Assembly (NCBI GenBank): GCA_031279495.1
Contig: JAITIJ010000067.1
Location: forward strand, 1 to 34,845
DNA length: 34,845 nucleotides
From: Holosporales bacterium
Lineage (GTDB): Bacteria > Pseudomonadota > Alphaproteobacteria > UBA3830 > JAIRMZ01
Direction of reading: 5' to 3'
Shown: positions 245 to 27,573 of the stretch, piece after piece
Position numbering within the stretch: the stretch's first letter is position 1
Layout of the letters: the number at the start of each line of letters is the position of its first letter
The notes under the pieces: model-generated
The model's input: the letters and a program-made list of their open reading frames with translations, nothing else
Told to the model about the DNA's origin: nothing
Databases searched by the model: none
Position numbers and translations under genes: made by a program

Positions 245-320
245 GTCCCCATCGTCTAGAGGCCCAGGACATCGCCCTCTCACGGCGACAACAGGGGTTC
301 GAATCCCCTAGGGGACGCCA
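245..320 (+). tRNA. tRNA-Glu, anticodon CUC
   Basis: GTCCCCATCGTCTAGAGGCCCAGGAC; anticodon arm TCGCC-CT-CTC-AC-GGCGA; T-arm AGGGG-TTCGAAT-CCCCT; encoded CCA. Confidence 0.97.
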
Positions 321-1016: not shown

Positions 1017-2351
1017 ATGCTGCTTACACAGTTTCTAAAGAAACGACTTCCGCAAACGCTGTACAGGCGTTCGTTGCTAATCGTTGTGATGCCGATTATC
1101 CTCATTCAAGCAATTTCAGCGTTTGTCTTTTTCGATCGTCATTTGGAATCTGTCATGCGACAGGTCGCCAATTCTAAGGCCGAGGCAATTAGCGTGATTG
1201 TATCGTTGAGTCAGCACCTGCCGCACGCTATGGATGTTGTTAGGCAAGAAGCGGCGCGTTTCGAATTAACGCTTGAGGTTTTTCCTTCAAACACACAACT
1301 CCCAAAAAAATCTACGCCTTTCCCTTATATGGCAGGGTATATGTTTGAAGAAGCATTACAGGGACATCTCAAAGAAACCTATACTCTGACAGAGTCCAGC
1401 ACCTGTTTCATTGTTCATGTTCCTACCAGTCCTCAGCAGACATTGAAATTGTCTGTACCAAAGAGGCGCTTTGTAAGCCGCACAAGCGACATCTTCATCA
1501 TGTGGTCATTAGGAACATCGGTTTTGTTCACGTTGATCGCGTGGCTCTTTATGCGCAATCAGATTCGTCCTATTAAACAGCTGGCACAAGCAGCAGATCA
1601 GTTCGGCAGGAATAACACGTTCGACACGTTAACGCCCAGTGGCGCCTTAGAAGTGCGTAAAGCAGGAGAAGCGTTTAACGCAATGCAAGCGCGCATTAAA
1701 AGCTACATTGAACAACGCACCGAGATGCTTGCTGGCGTTTCACATGATTTGCGCACACCATTGACGCGCATGCGGCTGCATCTAGAGCTAATGCCAGAAA
1801 GCACCAACGTCTTAGCTCTTAAGCATGATTTGTCGGAGATGGACGCGATGGTAAACCATTTCCTGGAATATGTCCGTGGGGAGCGCTTAGAGAGACTGGA
1901 GCGACTGGCGTTGGCTCCTGTCATTCGAGAGGTTGCGCAGCGATATTTTATGCCAGCGCTAAGTTGTACGTTTTCTTTGGATGATCGTATTGTAACCACC
2001 GTAAGGCCGCAAGCGTTTCGACGGCTTTTGTCTAACATTCTCTCTAATTGTCAGCGCTATGCACATAATGTGCGTCTTCTTCTTATGCAAGAAGGAGATA
2101 TCTCTTTAATGATCGAAGATGATGGTCCTGGTATTCCAGAACAGCACAGGCAGGACGTTTTCGAGCCTTTTTTTCGTTTGGACGCATCGCGTACGCCAGG
2201 AAAAGGGGGAAGCGGATTGGGGTTGCCTATCGTAAAGGACTTGGTTACGTCTATGGGGGGCACCATCACGCTGACATCATCTTCTTTGGGTGGCTTAGGA
2301 GTCCTTATTCGTCTCCCGAGTAATACCGGGATTCCTTTAAATACATCTTAA
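1017..2351 (+). CDS. Membrane sensor histidine kinase (EnvZ/RisS-like: 2 TM, HAMP, HisKA, HATPase_c)
   Basis: H-box GVSHDLRTPLTR, N-box NILSNCQRY, DDGPGI, F-box FEPFFR, G2 GSGLGL. Confidence 0.95.
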   Translation: MLLTQFLKKRLPQTLYRRSLLIVVMPIILIQAISAFVFFDRHLESVMRQVANSKAEAISVIVSLSQHLPHAMDVVRQEAARFELTLEVFPSNTQLPKKSTPFPYMAGYMFEEALQGHLKETYTLTESSTCFIVHVPTSPQQTLKLSVPKRRFVSRTSDIFIMWSLGTSVLFTLIAWLFMRNQIRPIKQLAQAADQFGRNNTFDTLTPSGALEVRKAGEAFNAMQARIKSYIEQRTEMLAGVSHDLRTPLTRMRLHLELMPESTNVLALKHDLSEMDAMVNHFLEYVRGERLERLERLALAPVIREVAQRYFMPALSCTFSLDDRIVTTVRPQAFRRLLSNILSNCQRYAHNVRLLLMQEGDISLMIEDDGPGIPEQHRQDVFEPFFRLDASRTPGKGGSGLGLPIVKDLVTSMGGTITLTSSSLGGLGVLIRLPSNTGIPLNTS

Positions 2352-3228
2352 GGTTATAGAAGAAGCGCATAACATGAGTCTTTATCTTATACGACATTTT
2401 TCTGAGATAAAAAGTGAGTGAGATCGGGGCGTTTTCTTGCTTTAGTAAAGTTGTTCTTTGAATGTCAGAATTTCCAAAAGTTTGGTGCGCAAGATGCGGT
2501 TCTATGATGGTGAACTTAATGTCAAATTCCCACCCTCGTGTAAACATAACGTCCACTGGCATCTTTATAGGAAATGCGTGCGTTAACAACCGAGCGGCAG
2601 CTTGTCGATTGATCAAATAAGCACCTGCGCACGAAAAGGCTTTCAGATATACGACAAGTTTGCCGTAGCTTTTTAAGGAACGCAATGTTAAGGGTGTGGC
2701 GCTGCGAGACAAGTTAAAATTGACAACATCCCAGTCGTTGGAGGAATCCATCAGCTCTGTCACAACTGCTTTAAGCGTTTCTGGAGGAAATGTGATGTCA
2801 TCTTCAACAATAAGGGCATAGCGATACGAAGACTGTAGAAACTTTTCCCATGCTTTAAAATGGCTGAGGCTGCATCCAATTTCCCCTCGTTTAGGAGGAT
2901 ATCCCTGGAACACACGAAAGGAATCTGTATCAACGTACTGATCGAGATCGCTTTCTGAAAGGCGCTGACCATCAATAGCCGAGATTCGCTCTGTCGGAAA
3001 ACGCATTTGCAACACTCGAGGAAGGACGAAGCGCAACCGATCGGGAGAACGATCGAGATTGATGACATACACGACAATTCCTCGCGTCTTCATAGAAGTT
3101 TCTTTTACGGATATAGGGCGTGTGCCGCACACAAAAGCACCCTCGAAGAGCGTCAACACAACAAGAAACCCCAGAAGAGCGCCGGCACTTATATAGCAAA
3201 AAGATCTGCACAACACAGATCGGATCAT
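2305..3228 (-). CDS. Glycosyltransferase family 25 (LgtB/Lex2-like) with hydrophobic N-terminus
   Basis: YVINLDRSPDR, GEIGCSLSH, LIVEDD, GAYLI motifs; AGGAG SD upstream; convergent 47-bp overlap with the kinase. Confidence 0.92.
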   Translation of the reverse strand: MIRSVLCRSFCYISAGALLGFLVVLTLFEGAFVCGTRPISVKETSMKTRGIVVYVINLDRSPDRLRFVLPRVLQMRFPTERISAIDGQRLSESDLDQYVDTDSFRVFQGYPPKRGEIGCSLSHFKAWEKFLQSSYRYALIVEDDITFPPETLKAVVTELMDSSNDWDVVNFNLSRSATPLTLRSLKSYGKLVVYLKAFSCAGAYLINRQAAARLLTHAFPIKMPVDVMFTRGWEFDIKFTIIEPHLAHQTFGNSDIQRTTLLKQENAPISLTFYLRKMSYKIKTHVMRFFYNLKMYLKESRYYSGDE

Positions 3229-3289: not shown

Positions 3290-3946
3290 TTAAGGGGAAA
3301 ATGCTGAAGAATTCGTCTCTGCAGAACAGGACAGATGAAAGACGAAGATCCTTCCTGTATGCACGATCACCTGCGCAGATGGCTCTGTAATGATATTGCT
3401 CATCCCATGTGTCACGTATCTTAGAGGAGTGTTTTCCAACGTGTATTGACATCCACGAATGGTGATGCGTGAAGGCTCTGCTCCAGAGGACAAGAGAGAA
3501 AGCGTATCGCCTATGGCATCATGCAGGACGATTTCTGAACGCACGCAACAAAGACGTGTTGTGTTGTGGACAAAGGCTAATTGGCATGTAGAGAACCGAT
3601 CATCTGCTAATAGGGTCATGTTTGCCATCGATTGATCGACGCGTCCACCTAAAGCGCCATAGATCACTCCTTCTGTCATGCCGTGCTCTTTTGCCCACAA
3701 TAAAGCAATCTCGAGGTCTGTTTGATCCTTGTCTTTTTGGAAAAGGCAAAAGGGTACTTCTCGGTCTTGCCACTTTTGTTGGACAGAAGACGCAAGAGAA
3801 TCCCCATCGCCAATGACAATATGAGGTATTATGCCAGCAAGATCAGCGTAGTTTCCACCACCATCAACAGCTATAACGCAATCAAAATATGCAGGGTCTG
3901 GAAGTGCGACGTTGCATTGCCCATTCGCAATAAGCAAAACCTTCAT
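3290..3946 (-). CDS. thiN: Thiamine pyrophosphokinase
   Basis: MKVLLIANG, IAVDGG, IGDGDS, KDQTDLEIAL, GALGGRVDQ, GMSN; start reassigned to the ATG at 3946, which overlaps the upstream stop (ATGA). Confidence 0.95.
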   Translation of the reverse strand: MKVLLIANGQCNVALPDPAYFDCVIAVDGGGNYADLAGIIPHIVIGDGDSLASSVQQKWQDREVPFCLFQKDKDQTDLEIALLWAKEHGMTEGVIYGALGGRVDQSMANMTLLADDRFSTCQLAFVHNTTRLCCVRSEIVLHDAIGDTLSLLSSGAEPSRITIRGCQYTLENTPLRYVTHGMSNIITEPSAQVIVHTGRIFVFHLSCSAETNSSAFSP

Positions 3947-4212
3947 GTGTGGTGCTGTTTTTTCCCGAACATTCTCAGTATGCACAAGCCACCCCAGAGA
4001 AGCAGCATAGTGGCGTTGACTATGAAGACAGAAGGCGCTTCTGCAAGTACACCGTAAAAGGTCCACAAAAGCATACCACTGAAATTCAGGATGCACATAC
4101 CAAAAGACAAACCCTTTGCTTGAGGATCTCTATAGGTCTCACGCAATTGGGGGAAAAGAGCAACAATAGATACCAGGCCAGCCACTAAACCGACCCATTC
4201 ACTTATGGGCAC
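3943..4212 (-). CDS. SemiSWEET/PQ-loop family 3-TM transporter, candidate thiamine transporter
   Basis: 89 aa, three hydrophobic helices, LFPQL motif, GLS, LW..YG and TM3 Asn (FIVNA); GTG start 5 nt after GGGAGG SD. Confidence 0.88.
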   Translation of the reverse strand: MPISEWVGLVAGLVSIVALFPQLRETYRDPQAKGLSFGMCILNFSGMLLWTFYGVLAEAPSVFIVNATMLLLWGGLCILRMFGKKQHHT

Positions 4213-4214
4213 AA

Positions 4215-4310
4215 GATCCTCCCTCCGCTGGTACAAACCAGATCAGGTTCAAAGGGTCGAGTCCTTAAGACTCCTCTCAGCTCTTGCAAGCTCCCCCGCA
4301 GAAAGCATCT
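4215..4310 (-). promoter_or_regulatory. TPP riboswitch (THI element)
   Basis: Minus strand GGGGAGC..GCTGAGAG-(hairpin GAGTCT/GGACTC)-GACCCTTTGAACCTGAT-CTGGT-ttgt-ACCAG-CGGAGGGA; canonical TPP aptamer motifs in order, upstream of thiN. Confidence 0.95.
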
Positions 4311-4420
4311 TTGCAAAAATCTGCTGAAACGTCAATCCATTAAGAAGAACATTCATTTGGAGCAACTAGAAACAAAAAGAGCCAGAAAGGTGATTCTCTC
4401 TGGCTCTTAAAGCGCTGTTT

Positions 4421-5281
4421 TTAAAAAGCACTGAGATCGATAGATCCAACAACACGATAAACAGCATGTAAAGCACTACGATCAAGCTCGATAAGGGCGT
4501 CTTCTTTAGAAAGAGAAACAATCTTGCTGTCAGGTTCGCTTTTGCCACCTTTTAATGCCTCGAAATGCTCGATAGAACATACTTGCAAGCTTGTTGGCGT
4601 TACGCTCCAGATCTTCTTTAGAAGAGCTTCTCCAGCTTCTGTAACAATCAGTACTGTTGCTTCTGGTGCCACCTGTGGAGAAGGATTTAGCCATAACAGT
4701 GAAGAGTCACTGTAGTAAGGCCGGAAATGCGTTCCAGCCTTAAGAGCAAAAGCTTCTCTCTTCCCAGCAAGTTCTGCTGGACGATGACGCATCTCGATGG
4801 CCGTATCCATCTTTAACTCCACTCTTCCTTCTTGAGAGCCTTGTTGCAAAACGTACACGGGAAGGTCGCAAAATACTTCTGACGCACGATTAGCAGAGCC
4901 ATCGTGGCGCTGCCCAAACATCTCACTTCTTCTTAACCGAATCTCCGCGGGAAGAAGGGCTGATTCTTCATGAATCTTATCCACCAACAACTCAGCTGGG
5001 TCGCAATTAAACGCTCCAGAAAGGCGGCGGATAAGATCCGTATTCAATCGTCGAGATCCTGATTCGAGACGCGACAAATAAGAAACGGAAATTCCCGTCA
5101 GCTCTGAGAGAATTTCCAGTGTGAGTCCTGTACGTTTCCTAAGAAATTTCAGGTGCGTCATAGCACTGCCTCTCCTTCTTCGCCCGCGTTTGCCCGGGGT
5201 TGTAAGTGAAATAGGTGAAGACGATGAAGCTCCAAATCCTTGGTCTTCTGCTGGTATTGGATTCAAACTGTGTCTAGCCAT
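4421..5281 (-). CDS. XRE/Cro-CI family HTH regulator with degenerate S24/LexA-like C-terminal domain
   Basis: LKFLRKRTGLTLEILSELTGISVSYLSRLESGSR HTH; C-terminal LPVY...AFAL...LLKK pattern; start MARHS chosen for GGAG SD. Confidence 0.85.
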   Translation of the reverse strand: MARHSLNPIPAEDQGFGASSSSPISLTTPGKRGRRRRGSAMTHLKFLRKRTGLTLEILSELTGISVSYLSRLESGSRRLNTDLIRRLSGAFNCDPAELLVDKIHEESALLPAEIRLRRSEMFGQRHDGSANRASEVFCDLPVYVLQQGSQEGRVELKMDTAIEMRHRPAELAGKREAFALKAGTHFRPYYSDSSLLWLNPSPQVAPEATVLIVTEAGEALLKKIWSVTPTSLQVCSIEHFEALKGGKSEPDSKIVSLSKEDALIELDRSALHAVYRVVGSIDLSAF

Positions 5282-5429
5282 TATTTTCTCCATTTTTATG
5301 ATGAAGGCAAAATACAACATGTTAAAGCACAATGCAAGCGTAACAAAAATTCTGTTAATTTTTACGCTTATAAGCGCTCTATAAATATCAAGAAATACTC
5401 TTCTTAACTTCTATTTGTTCTGCGCTACA

Positions 5430-6052: not shown

Positions 6053-6129
6053 GGCGGAGTAGCTCAGTTGGTTAGAGCAGCGGAATCATAATCCGCGTGT
6101 CGGGGGTTCAAGTCCCTCCTCCGCTACCA
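6053..6129 (+). tRNA. tRNA-Met (CAU), probably elongator
   Basis: GGCGGAG/CTCCGCT acceptor stem, GCGGA-AT-CAT-AA-TCCGC anticodon arm, TTCAAGT T-loop, CCA; TTGAAG-N16-TATAAT upstream (6012-6039). Confidence 0.95.
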
Positions 6130-6186: not shown

Positions 6187-7974
6187 ATGTACCGAACGCA
6201 TACGTGTGGTGCATTGCGAATAGCCCACACCGGAAAACAAGTGCAGTTAGCGGGATGGGTGTATCGCAAGCGAGACCATGGGAATCTTCTGTTCATCGAC
6301 TTACGCGATCATTACGGCGTTACTCAGTGCGTTGTTGAAAAAGAGCGTCCGTCCTTTGAGTTGCTATCAACCGTTCGCTTGGAAAGCGTTGTTACCCTTT
6401 CTGGGCATGTAGCACAACGCGCACAACATGTTGTAAATACCAAGATTCCCACTGGCGAGATAGAGTTAGTAATCGCAAATGCGGCGGTTCTGTCTGCCGC
6501 AGAGACATTGCCATTTCCTATAACAGAGGAAGGGGCTACGTACCCGGAAGAAACACGACTAAAATACCGCTTTTTGGATTTGCGGCGTGAGGAGGTGCAT
6601 CAAAACTTAGTTCTGCGCGCGGAAGTCATCAAATTTTTGCGTGATGAAATGCAGCGTGCGGGATTCTTAGAGGTGCAGACGCCGATTCTTGCCGCCAGCT
6701 CTCCAGAGGGTGCTCGCGATTTTCTGGTTCCTAGTCGGCTGCATCCGGGCAAGTTCTATGCCCTTCCTCAAGCGCCGCAACAGTTCAAACAATTATTGAT
6801 GGTTTCAGGCGTTGATAGATATTTCCAAATTGCACCATGTTTTCGAGACGAAGATAGCCGTGCAGACCGTTCTCCTGGTGAGTTCTACCAATTGGACATG
6901 GAGATGGCTTTTGTTTCGCAAGAAGATGTCTTGGCAACGCTTGAACCTATTTTGAGGCGTACTTTCGAAACATTTGGCCAGGGCCGCTCTGTGACTGATA
7001 CTCCATTCCCACGTTTAACATTCGAAGAAGCGATGCGCACTTATGGATCAGACAAGCCAGATCTGCGAAACCCTTTGAAACTTACCGATGTGACTGAACT
7101 ATTTAAGGGCGGAGCTTTCACGCTATTCGCGCGAGCCGTTGAAACCGGAGCGCGTGTACAAGCCATCGCTGTTTCATGTTATTTAGATCGCTATCCACGC
7201 AGCTTTTTTGATTCTTTAAATAACTGGGCGCGTGCAGAAGGTATGGGCGGTTTAGCATACATCCTCTTTTCAGAAATCGAAGCTAAGGGGCCCATTTCGA
7301 AGTTTCTTTCTTCCGCCGATCAGGCGCGCCTGCGCGAGCAAACAGGTCTTCCCGGAGCTGGTGTTGTGTTTTTTGTGTGCGCTCCGGAGAAGTGTTCTTT
7401 AAAAAACGCTGGGATTGTACGCAAAAGACTCGGAGAAGCTTTTGGTCTCGTAGAAAAAGATACCTTTCGCTTTTGCTGGATCGTAGATTTTCCGATGTAC
7501 GAACTAGACGAACTCACTGGAAAGATTGTCTTCAGCCACAACCCCTTTTCGATGCCGCAGGGTGGGCTAGAGGATCTTGAGAAGCAAGATCCTCTCGCTA
7601 TTAAGGCGTATCAATACGATATTGTTTGCAATGGGGTGGAGCTTTCAAGTGGGGCTATTCGCAATCACTTGCCCGAGGTGATGTTCAAAGCGTTTGCAAT
7701 TGCCGGATATGAACGCGAGGAGGTAGAGACGCGTTTTGGCGGTATGTTGCGCGCGTTTCGGTATGGAGCGCCGCCGCATGGAGGGTGCGCACCCGGCATT
7801 GACCGCATGATAATGCTTTTACGCGATGCAGCAAACCTGCGAGAAGTTGTTGCTTTTCCACTAAATCAACAAGCAGAAGATGTCATGATGGGGGCGCCAA
7901 CCAAGATTCCTGAAACTCACTTGAAAGAACTCAATATTGCTATCAGACTGCCCGTTGTTAGTGGTGGGAAATAG
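6187..7974 (+). CDS. aspS: Aspartate--tRNA ligase
   Basis: [48 protein letters not shown]. Confidence 0.99.
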
Positions 7975-7981
7975 AAGAAAT

Positions 7982-9256
7982 ATGCGACAGGTATACAAAG
8001 TTTTTGCTGTTCTCCTCAGTTTGAGTTGTGTGGTTTTCGCAACAAATGCGGCAGCAGCTACCATAAGAATAACCTGCCGAGCAAAAGGGCAGGAATTAGA
8101 ACTCTGCAAAAAGGCTGTACAGGAATGGGAGAAAAGGACAGGGAACGTCGTTGAAATTATCCCACTTCCGCAAAGTAGTAGCGAGGCATTTGTAGTAACG
8201 CAGCAACAACTTAGTGCTCAGACGTCAGATGTGGACATCTTCCAAGTCGATACGACATGGGTCTCTTTTCTTGCCGCGCATGTTGTGTCTTTAAAGTTGT
8301 ATTTTTCGCAACAAGAATTAGCTGCGCATTTCCCCGCCATTCTTCAGAACAATACGATTAACGGGGAGCTGATCGTGGCGCCATGGTATGCGGATGTCGA
8401 CTTGCTCTTTTACCGTAAAGATCTGTTGGAAAAATACGGGAAGCTTCCGCCTACTTCTTGGGAGGACCTTTTCCTTATCGCGCAGGAGATCCAAGAGTCC
8501 GAACGTGCTGCTGGAAACGGGCGTCTGTGGGGCTATGTATTCCGCGGCAAAGCTTATGAAGGCTTGATGTGTCATGTTGTTGAATGGATCGGAGCGTTCG
8601 GTGGAACGCTATACCCACCAGATATTGCGTGTATTATTGAGGTTTTTACGTTTATTGCGCAATTTATTCCAAAGATCTCTCCTGCTGGTACTTTGAATTA
8701 TGCTGAAGAGGATGTGCGAGGCGTCTTTCAATCAGGAAATGCTATATTTGCGAGCAATTGGCCCTATACGTGGGCGTTGACACAAACAGAAAACTCACCG
8801 GTCAAGGGAAAGGTGGGGATTTGTGTGTTGCCCAAGGGAGGCCAGCACGGAAAGTGCACAAGTGTGCTCGGCGGATGGGGATTGTGTGTGTCGCGCTATT
8901 CTCGCAATCAAGAGGCTGCCATTGATCTAGTCCGATGGCTGACACGTCCAGAAGAACAGCGTCGACGTGCTCTGCACGCCTCCTACTGCCCCACAATACG
9001 GCTTCTTTACCAAGATCCAGAGCTGCTTACAGCTAATCCTTTCTTCAGACAAGCAGGACAAGCGCTGGAAACGGTGATTCTGCGCCCATCGAGTTCCCTT
9101 GGCAGGTTCTACGCACAAGCGAGTGCTAGCATTGTGAATTTGGTGCAGAGAGTCCTTCTTTGCAGGATTGCGCCCGACATGGCGGCGCAAAGGTTGGAAA
9201 AGGATATTATAGGCTTTCATAAACGTGCTTCAGAAATGGCAACTACGAAAAACTGA
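7982..9256 (+). CDS. Sugar ABC transporter substrate-binding protein (trehalose/maltose ThuE-like)
   Basis: Signal peptide from MRQVYK; LFYRKDLLEKYG, AYEGL, NWPY, LGGW motifs. Confidence 0.9.
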   Translation: MRQVYKVFAVLLSLSCVVFATNAAAATIRITCRAKGQELELCKKAVQEWEKRTGNVVEIIPLPQSSSEAFVVTQQQLSAQTSDVDIFQVDTTWVSFLAAHVVSLKLYFSQQELAAHFPAILQNNTINGELIVAPWYADVDLLFYRKDLLEKYGKLPPTSWEDLFLIAQEIQESERAAGNGRLWGYVFRGKAYEGLMCHVVEWIGAFGGTLYPPDIACIIEVFTFIAQFIPKISPAGTLNYAEEDVRGVFQSGNAIFASNWPYTWALTQTENSPVKGKVGICVLPKGGQHGKCTSVLGGWGLCVSRYSRNQEAAIDLVRWLTRPEEQRRRALHASYCPTIRLLYQDPELLTANPFFRQAGQALETVILRPSSSLGRFYAQASASIVNLVQRVLLCRIAPDMAAQRLEKDIIGFHKRASEMATTKN

Positions 9257-9272
9257 AGAAGGAATTTAAAAA

Positions 9273-10532
9273 ATGAGAAAGATGGTTATGCCTGCCGTTT
9301 TTTTGTGCACATTATTGTTGGCAATCTTGTGCGGAAACCTGCTGCCAGATTCCGTTGCTTCCTTTTTCTATGCCGTCAGCCTTGCCATCAAAGAAGTTCT
9401 GATCTTTACACTGCCCTTTGTCGTTTTCGCTTTGATTTACACATCTTTCAGCAAAATTGGCGTTGGATCTATAAAATTTTTGCTGTTTATTCTTTTGTTG
9501 ATATGCCTTTCAAACTTTATCAACACTTTTATTTCCTATCTGTTAGGCTGTGTTTGTGTAAGAAACAATTTGGTGTCGTCCATTCAGCAGACAGCGCAGC
9601 AAGTGGTTCCTTCTTTGATTCCCGCGTTTTCATTTACTCTTCCTTCCCTCATATCTAATGATAGAGCTCTGTTGATTGGCGCTATTTTCGGAATTCTCAG
9701 CGCATTTTCCAAAAAGATTATAAGAGAAAAAGGGATACACGCTAACAATCAAAAGCTTCCTAATAATATTGTTTTCCGTCTTCTCAATAAGAAATATCCA
9801 TGCAATATTGTCTTGTGTTTCCTTGATACATTGACGGGCATTTTCTTCAAGGCATTGCTGCCGATCATGCCATTGTTCATATTCGGCACAACGTTAAAAT
9901 TAGAACGCGAAGGGATAATCTCCTCTGTTCTCTCTGAATATTTCGCTGTAGGAGGAATTTTTATCATCTCTGCATATGGTTATGTTGCTCTACAGCTGTT
10001 TATTGCTTCCAATTTCTGTATTGAACGGTGGCTGCAATATTTGAGGAATCTATTGCCGGCTATCATAACAGGATTTGGCTCTATGTCGAGCGCTGCAGCC
10101 CTGCCATTGTCTGTTAAAGCTGCGGAAGCCAACCTAAAGAATAAAAGCACTGCAGCTATAATCGTGCCTTGTTCTGTAAATGTGCATCTTGTAGGAGACT
10201 GCTTTTTCATTCCTCTTGTTGCATTGATTGTTTCTTTTTTATTCGGAAAAGGGCTTCCAGAGCTTTCAACATATTTAATGTTTGCCATGCATTTTGTTGT
10301 TGCAAAATTTGCTGTTGCCGCGGTACCAGGAGGCGGCATTCTTGTTATGCTGCCCATTCTAGAAAAATACCTTGATTTTAACGGGGACATGCTAGGGTTA
10401 ATTACAGGCTTGTATATTATGTTCGATTCTGTGATTACAGCGTGCAATGTCGCGGGGAATGGTGCATTCGCGATCATCTTTGATCGGCTTGCGGAAATGT
10501 TCTTATCCAAAGAACAAGCCACGCAAAGCTAA
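9273..10532 (+). CDS. Dicarboxylate/amino acid:cation symporter (DAACS, GltP/SstT-like)
   Basis: Polytopic membrane protein; SMSSAAALP, AAVPGGG, TACNVAGN motifs. Confidence 0.88.
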   Translation: MRKMVMPAVFLCTLLLAILCGNLLPDSVASFFYAVSLAIKEVLIFTLPFVVFALIYTSFSKIGVGSIKFLLFILLLICLSNFINTFISYLLGCVCVRNNLVSSIQQTAQQVVPSLIPAFSFTLPSLISNDRALLIGAIFGILSAFSKKIIREKGIHANNQKLPNNIVFRLLNKKYPCNIVLCFLDTLTGIFFKALLPIMPLFIFGTTLKLEREGIISSVLSEYFAVGGIFIISAYGYVALQLFIASNFCIERWLQYLRNLLPAIITGFGSMSSAAALPLSVKAAEANLKNKSTAAIIVPCSVNVHLVGDCFFIPLVALIVSFLFGKGLPELSTYLMFAMHFVVAKFAVAAVPGGGILVMLPILEKYLDFNGDMLGLITGLYIMFDSVITACNVAGNGAFAIIFDRLAEMFLSKEQATQS

Positions 10533-10540
10533 GTGTTCAA

Positions 10541-11449
10541 ATGAAAAAGTTTTCTTCTGCTAACCGTTCGATAACGCATCAGCGTTGTAGGACAGCATGG
10601 CTCTTCATGACACCCTGTCTTTTCGTATTGCTTTCGGTGGCAGCATGGCCTCTATTTCGAACATTTCTGTTTAGTCTGACAGATGCCCAACTCGGAGATA
10701 TTCCACATGCACAGTTTGTGGGATTTGCAAATTTTGCTGAGCTTTTCGCGGATGATAATTGGTGGAGTGCGGTTAAAAACACATTGCTGTTTGCAACGTT
10801 CTCAGTACCATGTGAGGCAATTCTTGGCCTTATGATCGCATTAGTTCTGCATAAAACCTTTATGGGTCGTGGTCTATTGCGTGCGGCGGTTCTGGTGCCA
10901 TGGGCAATCCCAACTATCGTTTCTGCCAGAATGTGGAGCTGGATGTTGCACGATGTGTATGGCGTTATAAACGAGCTTCTTGTTTGGATTGGGGCAATTG
11001 CAGCGCCGCTTCCGTGGACGGCAGCTCCCGAACTGAGCCTTATAACCATTGTACTTGTTGATGTGTGGAAAACAACACCGTTCATGGCCTTATTGTTACT
11101 TGCTGGTTTACAAGCTCTGCCGCAGGATTGTTTCGAAGCAGCTCTTGTTGATGGCGTTTCACGCAAGCGAATTTTTTTCCGGATTACTCTGCCACTGCTT
11201 AGGCCAACGCTTATTGTCGCACTGATCTTTCGAACGCTCGATGCGCTACGCATTTTTGACTTAGTATATATATTAAGCAGCGGAGATGCAGACACAGACA
11301 CGATGTCTGTCTACGCACGCCGACATTTTGTAGATTATGCCAATGTTGGACACGGATCAGCCGCGGCAGTGTGCCTATTTTTTATAGTGGCCTTGGTAAC
11401 GGTACTCTACATCAACATAGGACGGCACAATATCTTAGGAGAAGTATGA
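10541..11449 (+). CDS. Sugar ABC transporter permease (MalF/ThuF-like)
   Basis: FVGFANF, WKTTPF, EAA loop FEAALVDG. Confidence 0.95.
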   Translation: MKKFSSANRSITHQRCRTAWLFMTPCLFVLLSVAAWPLFRTFLFSLTDAQLGDIPHAQFVGFANFAELFADDNWWSAVKNTLLFATFSVPCEAILGLMIALVLHKTFMGRGLLRAAVLVPWAIPTIVSARMWSWMLHDVYGVINELLVWIGAIAAPLPWTAAPELSLITIVLVDVWKTTPFMALLLLAGLQALPQDCFEAALVDGVSRKRIFFRITLPLLRPTLIVALIFRTLDALRIFDLVYILSSGDADTDTMSVYARRHFVDYANVGHGSAAAVCLFFIVALVTVLYINIGRHNILGEV

Positions 11450-12294
11450 GCCACATAGTCTTAAAACTACAACAGAGAGCGCGCCATTTGTTTTTTTGTC
11501 TCTTTTGTGTGTTGATTGCATTGCTGTGTTTATTCCCCTTTTACTGGGCAATCGTTTCCTCCTTAAAAAGCGGAGCCGATATTTTTGCAACAGATCTTGT
11601 GCCAAAATGCATCACATTTCAAAATTACTACACTATTTTTCAGGATAGGACTTTTAGCTGCGCGCTTTTAAATTCAACGATCGTATCCTTTGTAACTGTG
11701 TGTATAGCTCTCGCATTGGCAGCTTTAGCCTCTTTTGCTCTTGCGCGCATTTCTTTTCGCGGTCGTAAACGGATTTTGATCGCGATTCTCAGTGTCACTA
11801 TGTTTCCTCAAGTGGCGGTTCTTTCGGGTATGTTTGAGCTTATCCGTACCTTAGGGCTGTACAACCAGCGTTCGGCGCTTATCTTGTCGTATATGACGGT
11901 GACGGTGCCGTTTACAGCATGGACGCTAACGAGTTTTATGCGTGAAGTTCCTAAAGAGCTAGAGGAAGCTGCTATTATAGACGGCGCAGGACACTTCACG
12001 ATCTTGACGAAGATCTTTCTTCCGATTGTATCTCCAGCCCTTGTGACGACAGGATTGCTCGCCTTTGTTGCCGCTTGGAACGAATTCCTGTTCGCGTTGA
12101 CATTTACGCTGACTAACGAGGTGAGGACAGTTCCTGTTGCTATCGCCATGTTGAGTGGTGCAAGCCAGCATGAGCTACCTTGGGGAAATATCATGGCAGC
12201 AAGCGTTCTTGTTACCCTGCCACTTGTTGCGCTTGTGCTGATTTTCCAACGTCGTATCATCTCTGGCTTAACTGCAGGCGCTGTCAAAGGATAG
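11446..12294 (+). CDS. Sugar ABC transporter permease (MalG/ThuG-like)
   Basis: PKELEEAAIIDGA, AWNEFLFA, FQRRIISGLTAGAVKG; ATGA overlap gives start 11446. Confidence 0.95.
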   Translation: MSHIVLKLQQRARHLFFCLFCVLIALLCLFPFYWAIVSSLKSGADIFATDLVPKCITFQNYYTIFQDRTFSCALLNSTIVSFVTVCIALALAALASFALARISFRGRKRILIAILSVTMFPQVAVLSGMFELIRTLGLYNQRSALILSYMTVTVPFTAWTLTSFMREVPKELEEAAIIDGAGHFTILTKIFLPIVSPALVTTGLLAFVAAWNEFLFALTFTLTNEVRTVPVAIAMLSGASQHELPWGNIMAASVLVTLPLVALVLIFQRRIISGLTAGAVKG

Positions 12295-12300
12295 GCAGAT

Positions 12301-13443
12301 ATGACGACGATCACGCTTAAAAATGTTACAAAAAGCGTCAAGGATCACATCATCATCGACGGTATTGGTTTGGTGATCACAGGAAATTCTTGCACAGCTT
12401 TGGTTGGTCCGTCTGGCTGCGGCAAATCTACACTTTTGCGTTTGATCTGTGGTCTTGAAGAGCCGACCACAGGAGAAATCTATATCGATGGCCAATGCGT
12501 GAATATGCGGCCCCCTGTAGAACGCGGCATCGCCATGGTGTTCCAATCCTATGCCCTGTACCCTCACATGACTGTATTTGACAATATGGCGTTCGCATTG
12601 AAGATTGCAGGATGTAGTAAGACCGACATTGCTCAACGAGTTCAACAGACCGCAAAAACTTTAAAAGTCGAGCACCTTCTGGATCGCAAACCTAAACAGC
12701 TTTCCGGAGGTCAGCGTCAACGCGTGGCGATAGGTCGCGCGATTGTACGACATCCTAAGGCCTTTCTTTTCGACGAGCCACTTTCTAATTTAGATGCCGC
12801 CCTAAGATCTGAAATGCGTTATGAACTCGCACGTCTTAAAGCTGATCTCAATACAACGATGGTGTATGTAACTCATGATCAAGAAGAAGCCATGACCCTA
12901 GCCGACACGATTGTGGTTATGCGTGATGGACGTGTTGAGCAGCAGGGTACACCTCTCGAGCTCTATCATCGTCCGAAAAATCTGTTTGTGGCGAGTTTTA
13001 TCGGCTCACCAACGATGAATTTTCTGCAGGCAACAGTTGATGCGTGGCAAGAAGACCACTGCCTACGCATTCGGTTTCGTTCTGATGAAACTCTTCTGGT
13101 GAAAGTGCCATTTGATGCCTTAGAAGGTAAGGAAGAGCTGTTTTCTGAAGGAAGCTCTCTTACAATTGGAGTTCGGCCGGAAAGTCTTGAAGAAGACGTA
13201 TCCTGCACTGATCAAGAAGGCGTCCGTTTGAACGGAACAGTATCCTTGGTTGAAAACTTCGGCAATGAAGCGTATGTGTACGTTACGTTGCAAAAAGGGG
13301 GGCACGTTAAAGTGCGTTTGGCTGGGAATTGTACTTATGAAGTTGGTCGTCGTATATCCCTCTTTCTTCCTCAATCAGATTGCCATATTTTTGACGCGAA
13401 CGGAGAAGCGGTGAGGCGTTTTAAAGAGGAATCTCTGTGTTAA
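12301..13443 (+). CDS. Sugar ABC transporter ATP-binding protein (MalK/ThuK-like)
   Basis: GPSGCGKST, VFQSYALYPHM, LSGGQRQR, DEPLSNLD, C-terminal TOBE-like region. Confidence 0.96.
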   Translation: MTTITLKNVTKSVKDHIIIDGIGLVITGNSCTALVGPSGCGKSTLLRLICGLEEPTTGEIYIDGQCVNMRPPVERGIAMVFQSYALYPHMTVFDNMAFALKIAGCSKTDIAQRVQQTAKTLKVEHLLDRKPKQLSGGQRQRVAIGRAIVRHPKAFLFDEPLSNLDAALRSEMRYELARLKADLNTTMVYVTHDQEEAMTLADTIVVMRDGRVEQQGTPLELYHRPKNLFVASFIGSPTMNFLQATVDAWQEDHCLRIRFRSDETLLVKVPFDALEGKEELFSEGSSLTIGVRPESLEEDVSCTDQEGVRLNGTVSLVENFGNEAYVYVTLQKGGHVKVRLAGNCTYEVGRRISLFLPQSDCHIFDANGEAVRRFKEESLC

Positions 13444-27482: not shown

Positions 27483-27573
27483 GGATGGGTGGCCGAGCGG
27501 TCGAAGGCGCACGCCTGGAAAGTGTGTATGCGGTTCTCCCGCATCGTGGGTTCGAATCCCACCCCATCCGCCA
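27483..27573 (+). tRNA. tRNA-Ser, anticodon GGA
   Basis: GGATGGG/CCCATCC acceptor stem, CACGC-CT-GGA-AA-GTGTG anticodon arm, long variable arm, TTCGAAT, G73, CCA. Confidence 0.97.

Follow-up and report, generated by a model that had tools for sequence, protein, structure and literature searches.

A SemiSWEET gene between a TPP riboswitch and thiN: a candidate thiamine facilitator of Holosporales

How does a bacterium obtain free thiamine when its 0.96 Mb draft genome yields a thiamine diphosphokinase and a thiamine pyrophosphate (TPP)-dependent enzyme, and neither a thiamine synthesis pathway nor a known thiamine importer is found in it? This question is raised by a locus of a Holosporales bacterium that lies on contig JAITIJ010000067.1 of assembly GCA_031279495.1, here called the window (the whole stretch of 34,845 nucleotides that was analysed), in which a TPP riboswitch, a gene for an 89-residue protein of the SemiSWEET family and thiN follow one another on the minus strand. 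A first-pass annotation, made from the letters of the window, had proposed that a SemiSWEET was recruited here as a thiamine facilitator, with ThiN trapping the substrate. The conserved gene linkage, the riboswitch, the family assignments and the missing thiamine genes that are described below support this proposal, and the locus is probably an operon of two genes that serves thiamine salvage and is subject to feedback by TPP; in it the SemiSWEET would act as facilitator and ThiN as trap.

Few minimal transporters are understood in their structure as well as the prokaryotic SemiSWEETs, of whose physiological roles next to nothing is known; in genome annotation, and likewise in ecological papers, they are taken for sugar carriers. 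A riboswitch in front of such a gene is an unusually direct pointer to its natural ligand. Thiamine uptake is served in other bacteria by ThiBPQ and by the energy-coupling factor (ECF) system ECF-ThiT, in many of them under the control of a TPP riboswitch; both are ATP-driven importers of several subunits, unlike the SemiSWEET of the window. The logic proposed for the locus, a passive facilitator with a co-located thiamine kinase as trap, is by analogy that of PnuT, for example of Shewanella woodyi. The available text of Jaehme 2018 (PMC5749112) describes PnuT as a facilitated-diffusion carrier that binds thiamine and not thiamine monophosphate (TMP) or TPP, pnu genes as often co-located with kinase genes, and the Pnu fold as distantly resembling that of SWEET transporters. 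The SemiSWEET-thiN pair bears the Pnu hallmark of a gene beside the kinase of its vitamin, a likeness of function and not of homology: Pnu proteins have a core of seven transmembrane segments and a protomer that functions alone, whereas the protein of the window has three such segments in 89 residues and presumably works as a homodimer.

A thiamine link of a SemiSWEET is not wholly unanticipated, given that a perspective article mentions a SemiSWEET gene of Legionella cherrii that adjoins a thiamin pyrophosphokinase gene (Jia 2018, Front Genet, PMC5972207). The gene pairing is the same; it is mentioned there in one sentence on gene context, and the accessible part of that article holds no riboswitch, phyletic survey, missing-pathway argument or experiment. 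Beyond this mention, a search of literature full text, outside the scope of which most subscription-journal papers fell, yielded no riboswitch link, no characterisation of a thiamine-linked SemiSWEET, and no paper joining SemiSWEET, PQ-loop or MtN3/thiamin with a riboswitch, while papers that name both PQ-loop and thiamine transporter were unrelated to such a link. Within that scope the first-pass statement that no characterised thiamine-transporting SemiSWEET is known still holds. The fold and the uptake logic were already known; new here are the predicted substrate and the regulatory context.

The riboswitch-SemiSWEET-thiN locus and its predicted control

The Rfam covariance model of the TPP riboswitch matched the window on the minus strand at 4307-4203 over model positions 1-105 of 105, with 64.3 bits against a gathering score of 54.3 and an E-value of 1.4e-10, in agreement with the complete aptamer that the first-pass annotation had placed at 4310-4215. 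No second riboswitch of this kind was found in the assembly of 955,695 bases. The stop codon TGA of the SemiSWEET gene that follows (3945-3943) shares 4 nt with the ATG of thiN (3946-3944) in the sequence ATGA, and the overlap was read as it had been claimed. A Pfam search recognised PF04263 (84.2 bits) and PF04265 (32.5 bits) in the thiN product, which by family membership is a thiamine diphosphokinase (ThiN/TPK) with both the catalytic and the B1-binding domain present. All elements of the first description were confirmed, within a few bases of where it had put them (Table 1).

The full triad of riboswitch, SemiSWEET and thiN was found in six loci, i.e., the window, G004/L033, G003/L035, L097, L110 and G229/L116 (G and L are our numbers for genomes and loci), with riboswitch scores of 64.3-75.4 bits (L033, L035, L097 and L110, 64.8-68.9; G229, 75.4). 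Chance is therefore no explanation of a layout that recurs in five loci besides the window (riboswitches of 64.8-75.4 bits), among which the identity of the SemiSWEET to that of the window falls to 31-33% in L110 and L097. The riboswitch operon of L110 (2904-5249) consists of overlapping genes for the SemiSWEET, ThiN, a hydrolase of the HAD family and TenA, which is a further tie of SemiSWEET to thiamine and suggests that this lineage has a fuller salvage module.

In 6/6 triad loci a conserved stretch in the 3' part of the aptamer, CGGAGG(G/A)A, precedes the start codon by 3-9 nt, so the aptamer itself carries the Shine-Dalgarno sequence. The core helices of the aptamer show compensatory changes over the six loci, including one P5 pair that is G-C in three and A-U in three. 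In the minimum-free-energy fold of the window GGAGGG and AUCUU pair with the 5' segments CUUUCU and AAGAU, and the extended P1 helix ends 4 nt before GUG, while in L035 and L097 an extended P1 of other sequence reaches the AUG; these folds are no better than those of shuffled sequences (z from -0.03 to -1.8), and illustrate the layout without proving it. Because the 3' GGAGG of the aptamer is the ribosome-binding site, folding of the aptamer would shut off translation of the transporter. The riboswitch is thus likely a translational OFF switch that lacks a separate expression platform: ample TPP would bind the leader RNA, the folded aptamer would hide its own GGAGG, and with the transporter ThiN would also be shut off through translational coupling.

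The terminator-like hairpin at 4408-4377 follows the upstream gene, which encodes a helix-turn-helix (HTH) protein of XRE type (PF01381 HTH_3 match), and bounds the riboswitch operon on its upstream side; the operon therefore looks like a transcription unit of its own. A consensus scan of the 4310-4376 spacer found no sigma-70-like promoter; a TTGACG-N17-AAAGAT candidate seen by eye was dropped, as it would overlap the 5' end of the aptamer. Downstream, the terminator scan detected no terminator between thiN and the gene of a family-25 glycosyltransferase.

Table 1. Features of the window that are discussed in the text; the elements of the operon stand first.
Feature	Position	Strand	Remarks
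thiN	3290..3946	-	218 amino acids; TIGR01378 130.3 bits, cut-off 76.4
SemiSWEET/PQ-loop gene, candidate thiamine facilitator	3943..4212	-	89 amino acids; GTG start, TGA stop
TPP riboswitch aptamer (THI element)	4203..4307	-	RF00059
GGAGGGAGGA	4217..4226	-	conserved 3' part of the aptamer, also Shine-Dalgarno, 4 nt before GTG
Terminator-like hairpin	4377..4408	-	13-pair stem followed by a T-run, after the upstream HTH gene
HTH (XRE-type) open reading frame	4421..5332	-	PF01381
Family-25 glycosyltransferase gene	2305..3228	-	PF01755 86.5 bits; starts 61 nt after thiN, same strand
tRNA genes	245..317, 6053..6126, 27483..27570	+	Rfam
Aspartyl-tRNA-synthetase-like open reading frame	6187..7974		after the second tRNA; identified by eye from its translation
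ABC importer	7937..13443	+	binding protein, MalF/MalG-like permeases, UgpC/MalK-like ATPase (440 bits)
419-residue open reading frame	9273..10532		between binding protein and permeases; no NCBIfam match at 1e-5

Linkage to thiN and thiamine routes across genomes

The neighbourhood was surveyed in relatives, in a wider set of species and in an even sample of the class. The relatives were searched as a set of 61 genomes, made up of the own genome, 57 further members of its order (~0.5-2.2 Mb) and 3 genomes of greater size from the same class. A SemiSWEET match at E<=0.01 was obtained in 25 and thiN above its cut-off in 23, and in 22 of these 23 thiN-bearing genomes the SemiSWEET gene immediately precedes thiN, with both on one strand; in the genus g12 the pair was present in 12/12 genomes. 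The exception, G018, has SemiSWEET and thiN on separate contigs, which could reflect a rearrangement or an assembly break. Its SemiSWEET (L009 1462-1839 = L101) has 126 amino acids, with a C-terminal extension of ~30 residues. G008 carries a SemiSWEET and no thiN. Weak SemiSWEET matches in G034 and G044 contig C5 were rejected, as they fall inside frames of >420 amino acids and are probably spurious.

A pattern-seeded scan of GTDB species genomes with A1, an alignment profile of 21 homologues of the 89-residue protein, gave 78 SemiSWEET loci, in which thiN was located by a hidden Markov model built from stop-to-stop frames. It was found directly downstream in 17/78 loci, all of which (17/17) derive from metagenome-assembled genomes (MAGs) labelled Holosporales, Holosporaceae, Rickettsiaceae, Alphaproteobacteria or 'uncultured proteobacterium'; several of the loci are from the same genomes as the survey of relatives (identical sequences). 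The 61 unlinked loci belong to Endomicrobia, Bacteroidota, archaea, Patescibacteria and other groups. The nearest relatives of the window's SemiSWEET are from Holosporales MAGs and share 76%, 48% and 46% identity with it. A complete lack of association between homologues and thiamine genes would have spoken against the proposed recruitment; instead, thiN-linked homologues occur over many reduced-genome Alphaproteobacteria. Rfam scans of the 78 loci placed a TPP riboswitch directly 5' of the SemiSWEET gene in 4/17 thiN-linked loci (L033, L035, L097 and L110) and in 0/61 unlinked ones. A close relative, G002 (L034 3001-3237/L004), has kept the SemiSWEET-thiN pair, at which no TPP riboswitch was found even at a relaxed Rfam threshold. 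In the even class sample (200 genomes and the own genome, G000, i.e., 201) the A1 profile matched in 37/201 and thiN in 13/201; both genes were found only in G000 and G229, where they are adjacent, and 11 thiN genomes were without SemiSWEET.

The own assembly comprises 955,695 bases in 95 contigs and is 90% complete, with Holosporales MAGs as nearest named relatives. Family searches of this genome gave no match for ThiC, ThiE, ThiM and ThiL, nor for the importers Pnu (PF04973), ThiT and ThiB. Two weak matches were discarded, since the ThiG match (22.7 bits) is a nitronate monooxygenase and the ThiD-family match (33 bits) a PfkB-cytidylyltransferase. The expectation of the first-pass annotation that thiC, thiE, thiG and other importers are missing from the genome is thereby borne out as far as a draft that is 90% complete can tell. 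The genome does encode a TPP-dependent transketolase (PF00456, 344 bits), and therefore needs TPP. On this evidence ThiN would be its sole TPP-forming enzyme, for which free thiamine must enter by some route, and no gene other than that of the SemiSWEET accompanies both thiN and the riboswitch. The ATP-binding cassette (ABC) importer of the window was considered as a ThiBPQ system and rejected, being of the sugar/glycerol-3-phosphate type.

Over the order, ThiE was above its cut-off in 0/57 other genomes, ThiB had no match in these 57, and ThiT had none in any of the 61 genomes of the survey of relatives. Partial Pnu-like open reading frames were detected in 13/45 genomes of the family f4, and none in the window's own family or in genus g12. 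The f4 frames have 80-150 amino acids and match just the C-terminal half of the PF04973 profile, and they may be 'half-size Pnu' proteins; one of 143 amino acids in G029 (L114 1895-2323, minus strand) lies between MatE and TerC genes, with no kinase nearby.

The same inventory bears on the possibility that the SemiSWEET carries another thiamine-related compound, such as a precursor (pyrimidine or thiazole), a product of its breakdown, TMP or TPP, with ThiN as a neighbour of the same regulon. TPP riboswitches control precursor transporters in other bacteria, the L110 operon encodes TenA, an enzyme of pyrimidine salvage, together with the HAD hydrolase, and the genomes from which L110 and L097 come possess ThiE. 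In the window's genome, however, ThiD, ThiM and ThiE were not found, so that precursors would be unusable there; moreover, ThiN needs free thiamine and would be needless if TPP were imported, and tight coupling to thiN is the one feature that is conserved in 22/23 thiN-bearing relatives. A related compound as substrate is therefore considered unlikely.

Family and clade of the 89-residue protein

The 89-residue protein matched PF04193 (PQ-loop) with 44.1 bits (cut-off 22) and PF03083 (MtN3_slv) with 25.3 bits (cut-off 23.7). Searched against the Protein Data Bank (PDB), the A1 profile recovered SemiSWEET structures (4rng at 1.6e-20, 5uhs and 4qnc at ~7e-18, 4x5m at 2e-15, 9kax and 4qnd more weakly, to 5e-8), with cystinosin at merely 4e-5, and phmmer with the single sequence matched 4rng at 9.6e-11 over residues 3-88. 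No Pnu structure was among the PDB matches of either the profile or the single sequence, and PF04973 (Pnu/NMN_transporter) had no match in the protein at E<=0.1. The predicted model of the protein in the ESM Atlas matches SemiSWEET clusters with TM values of 0.80-0.87. These Pfam and profile matches make the protein a member of the SemiSWEETs rather than a Pnu protein of half size, which agrees with the first-pass reading and speaks against the clustering with half-size Pnu proteins that the first-pass annotation had named as a refutation. Among 1.84 billion representative proteins 538 matched at E<=1e-3 and 2 at E<=1e-10, the best being 48% identical; with the subfamily scores given below, which stay under their cut-offs, this marks the protein as a divergent member of the family. 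Public records hold 382 relatives at E<=1e-8, and members of the clade are named there 'hypothetical', 'MtN3 and saliva related', 'PQ-loop repeat-containing' or 'SemiSWEET family sugar transporter'.

The protein has its PQ motif at P21-Q22 and aligns without gaps to 4x5m over residues 7-88, with W50 and N66 on W50 and N66 of that structure and on W48 and N64 of 4qnc; the role given to these residues follows Jia 2018 (PMC5972207). The first-pass annotation had stressed these pocket residues (Trp in LLWTFYG, Asn in FIVNA); both are indeed present, but they are family-wide, and the pocket therefore gives no pointer to thiamine from sequence alone. The solved SemiSWEETs (4rng, 4qnc/5uhs, 4x5m, 4qnd and 9kax) belong to the same family and share with the window's protein the PQ motif and the positions of the pocket Trp and Asn; unlike for it, no link to a riboswitch or to the kinase of a vitamin is known for any of them.

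What sets the linked proteins apart was sought in a comparison of 40 distinct thiN-linked with 60 distinct unlinked SemiSWEET sequences, the latter set having a bias at positions 21-30 that stems from the search pattern. W50 is retained in 40/40 linked and 56/60 unlinked sequences, and N66 in 38/40 and 52/60; the two linked sequences that lack N66 bear Glu and are near-identical rows, both from G002, whose SemiSWEET in addition has Ala replacing Gly54. An Asn at position 42 or 43 is present in 40/40 linked and 2/60 unlinked sequences, Ser or Thr at position 65 in 36/40 and 13/60, and the residues Pro61 (2/40 against 45/60) and Gly46 (6/40 against 52/60) have largely disappeared from the linked set. 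The two unlinked SemiSWEETs with the Asn (L041 2971-3243 and L072 172-438) are from Endomicrobia and Saccharibacteria MAGs. The linked clade differs from the solved SemiSWEETs in its Asn42/43 and, mostly, in the lack of Pro61 and Gly46: at the place of N43 of the window's protein four solved SemiSWEETs have Met or Phe, and N43 corresponds to Phe41 of the Leptospira protein, which is placed near the intracellular surface of the translocation path in the accessible part of Jia 2018 (PMC5972207). In the small clade of the window itself the Asp of the intracellular gate (Asp32 in Leptospira numbering) is replaced, by Gly34 in the window's protein, and the cytoplasmic loop between the first and second transmembrane segments is remodelled, with ETYxNPxAxG instead of KSYxTKSxxD.

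Since the linked sequences are kin, these differences are a clade signature and not independent events. In a quick tree the thiN-linked sequences fall in two groups, and two separate origins of the linkage were considered; this reading was dropped, as a tree constrained to a single clade has the higher likelihood (log-likelihood 16.7 higher, p-AU 0.76). A single origin is accordingly not rejected, and convergent recruitment is not claimed.

The remodelled cytoplasmic loop, and the matched output of the two proteins that translational coupling suggests, would also suit a small membrane protein that is no transporter and that anchors or regulates ThiN at the membrane. The hallmarks of transport (PQ motif, W50 and N66) are kept in 38-40/40 linked sequences, however, and the genome would still be left without an entry route for thiamine, which makes such an anchor highly improbable, the least credible of the readings that were considered.

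An ordinary sugar SemiSWEET that merely shares a transcript with thiN, the riboswitch being there to regulate thiN, would account for the family membership, for the pocket Trp and Asn that are identical to those of glucose- and sucrose-transporting SemiSWEETs, and for the 'SemiSWEET family sugar transporter' names of relatives in public records. Against it, the predicted sequestration of the ribosome-binding site would act directly on the SemiSWEET start in 6/6 loci, gene order is kept where the SemiSWEET is only 31-33% identical to that of the window, no riboswitch accompanies any of the 61 unlinked loci, and the linked clade has its own sequence signature; chance passenger genes are, moreover, unlikely to last in genomes of ~1 Mb. 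Sugar transport in this setting is thus regarded as very unlikely.

A proposed uptake-and-trap operon and its implications

The explanation favoured here remains a thiamine salvage operon. In the proposed mechanism the 89-residue SemiSWEET, working as a homodimer by analogy with the solved SemiSWEETs, would be a passive facilitator that lets free thiamine across the inner membrane, and the translationally coupled ThiN would turn the incoming thiamine into TPP, which would be unable to leave the cell, so that net uptake would result from metabolic trapping until ample TPP closes the riboswitch. On a wider scale, we lean towards the view that the SemiSWEET clade that has Asn42/43 and has lost Pro61 and Gly46 functions as a vitamin B1 uniporter that partners ThiN in the way Pnu transporters partner kinases.

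Several observations weigh against thiamine as the substrate, or limit how far the proposal reaches. The best NCBIfam models of the protein are three SemiSWEET subfamilies, each of which it matches below the cut-off (SemiSWEET_2, 53.1 against 80; SemiSWEET_3, 28.1 against 100; SemiSWEET_1, 23.4 against 200). Its W50 and N66 do not differ from the pocket residues of sugar-transporting SemiSWEETs, the solved SemiSWEETs that it matches are labelled sugar transporters or are unnamed, and thiamine is a larger substrate and a cationic one. In the even class sample 35/37 SemiSWEET genomes are without thiN, and any thiamine role would therefore be that of this clade and not of the whole family. According to the Rfam scans the TPP riboswitch is missing in 13/17 thiN-linked GTDB loci; a search with stricter filters found it in 0/45 genomes of the family f4, and a relaxed Rfam scan revealed no degenerate riboswitch in 7 linked pairs that lack one. 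ThiE does occur in the genomes of L110 and L097, and this, together with TenA and the HAD hydrolase of L110, implies that ThiN may there also serve an internal route from TMP over thiamine to TPP and that the transporter could carry a precursor. The own assembly is 90% complete, so that absences from it stand as 'not found' and not as proven. Finally, the public sequencing runs that hold the window sequence comprise one DNA run, with no RNA-seq run listed.

If the proposal is true, no vitamin transporter smaller than the B1-uniporter SemiSWEET would be known, and this SemiSWEET would be the first whose substrate is cationic and not a sugar; by its function it would bridge the SemiSWEET and Pnu families. 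One SemiSWEET clade would thereby gain a physiological substrate, the chemistry of the family would widen from sugars to a cationic vitamin, and hundreds of database entries that are annotated as 'sugar transporter' would be corrected. For Rickettsia, the accessible part of Driscoll 2017 (PMC5615194) reports no synthesis of thiamine or its phosphates and no matching transporter identified. A SemiSWEET of this type would supply the route of thiamine entry that is missing in many Holosporales and Rickettsiales-like endosymbionts, and would explain the B1 supply of reduced-genome intracellular Alphaproteobacteria that are without ECF, ABC and Pnu systems.

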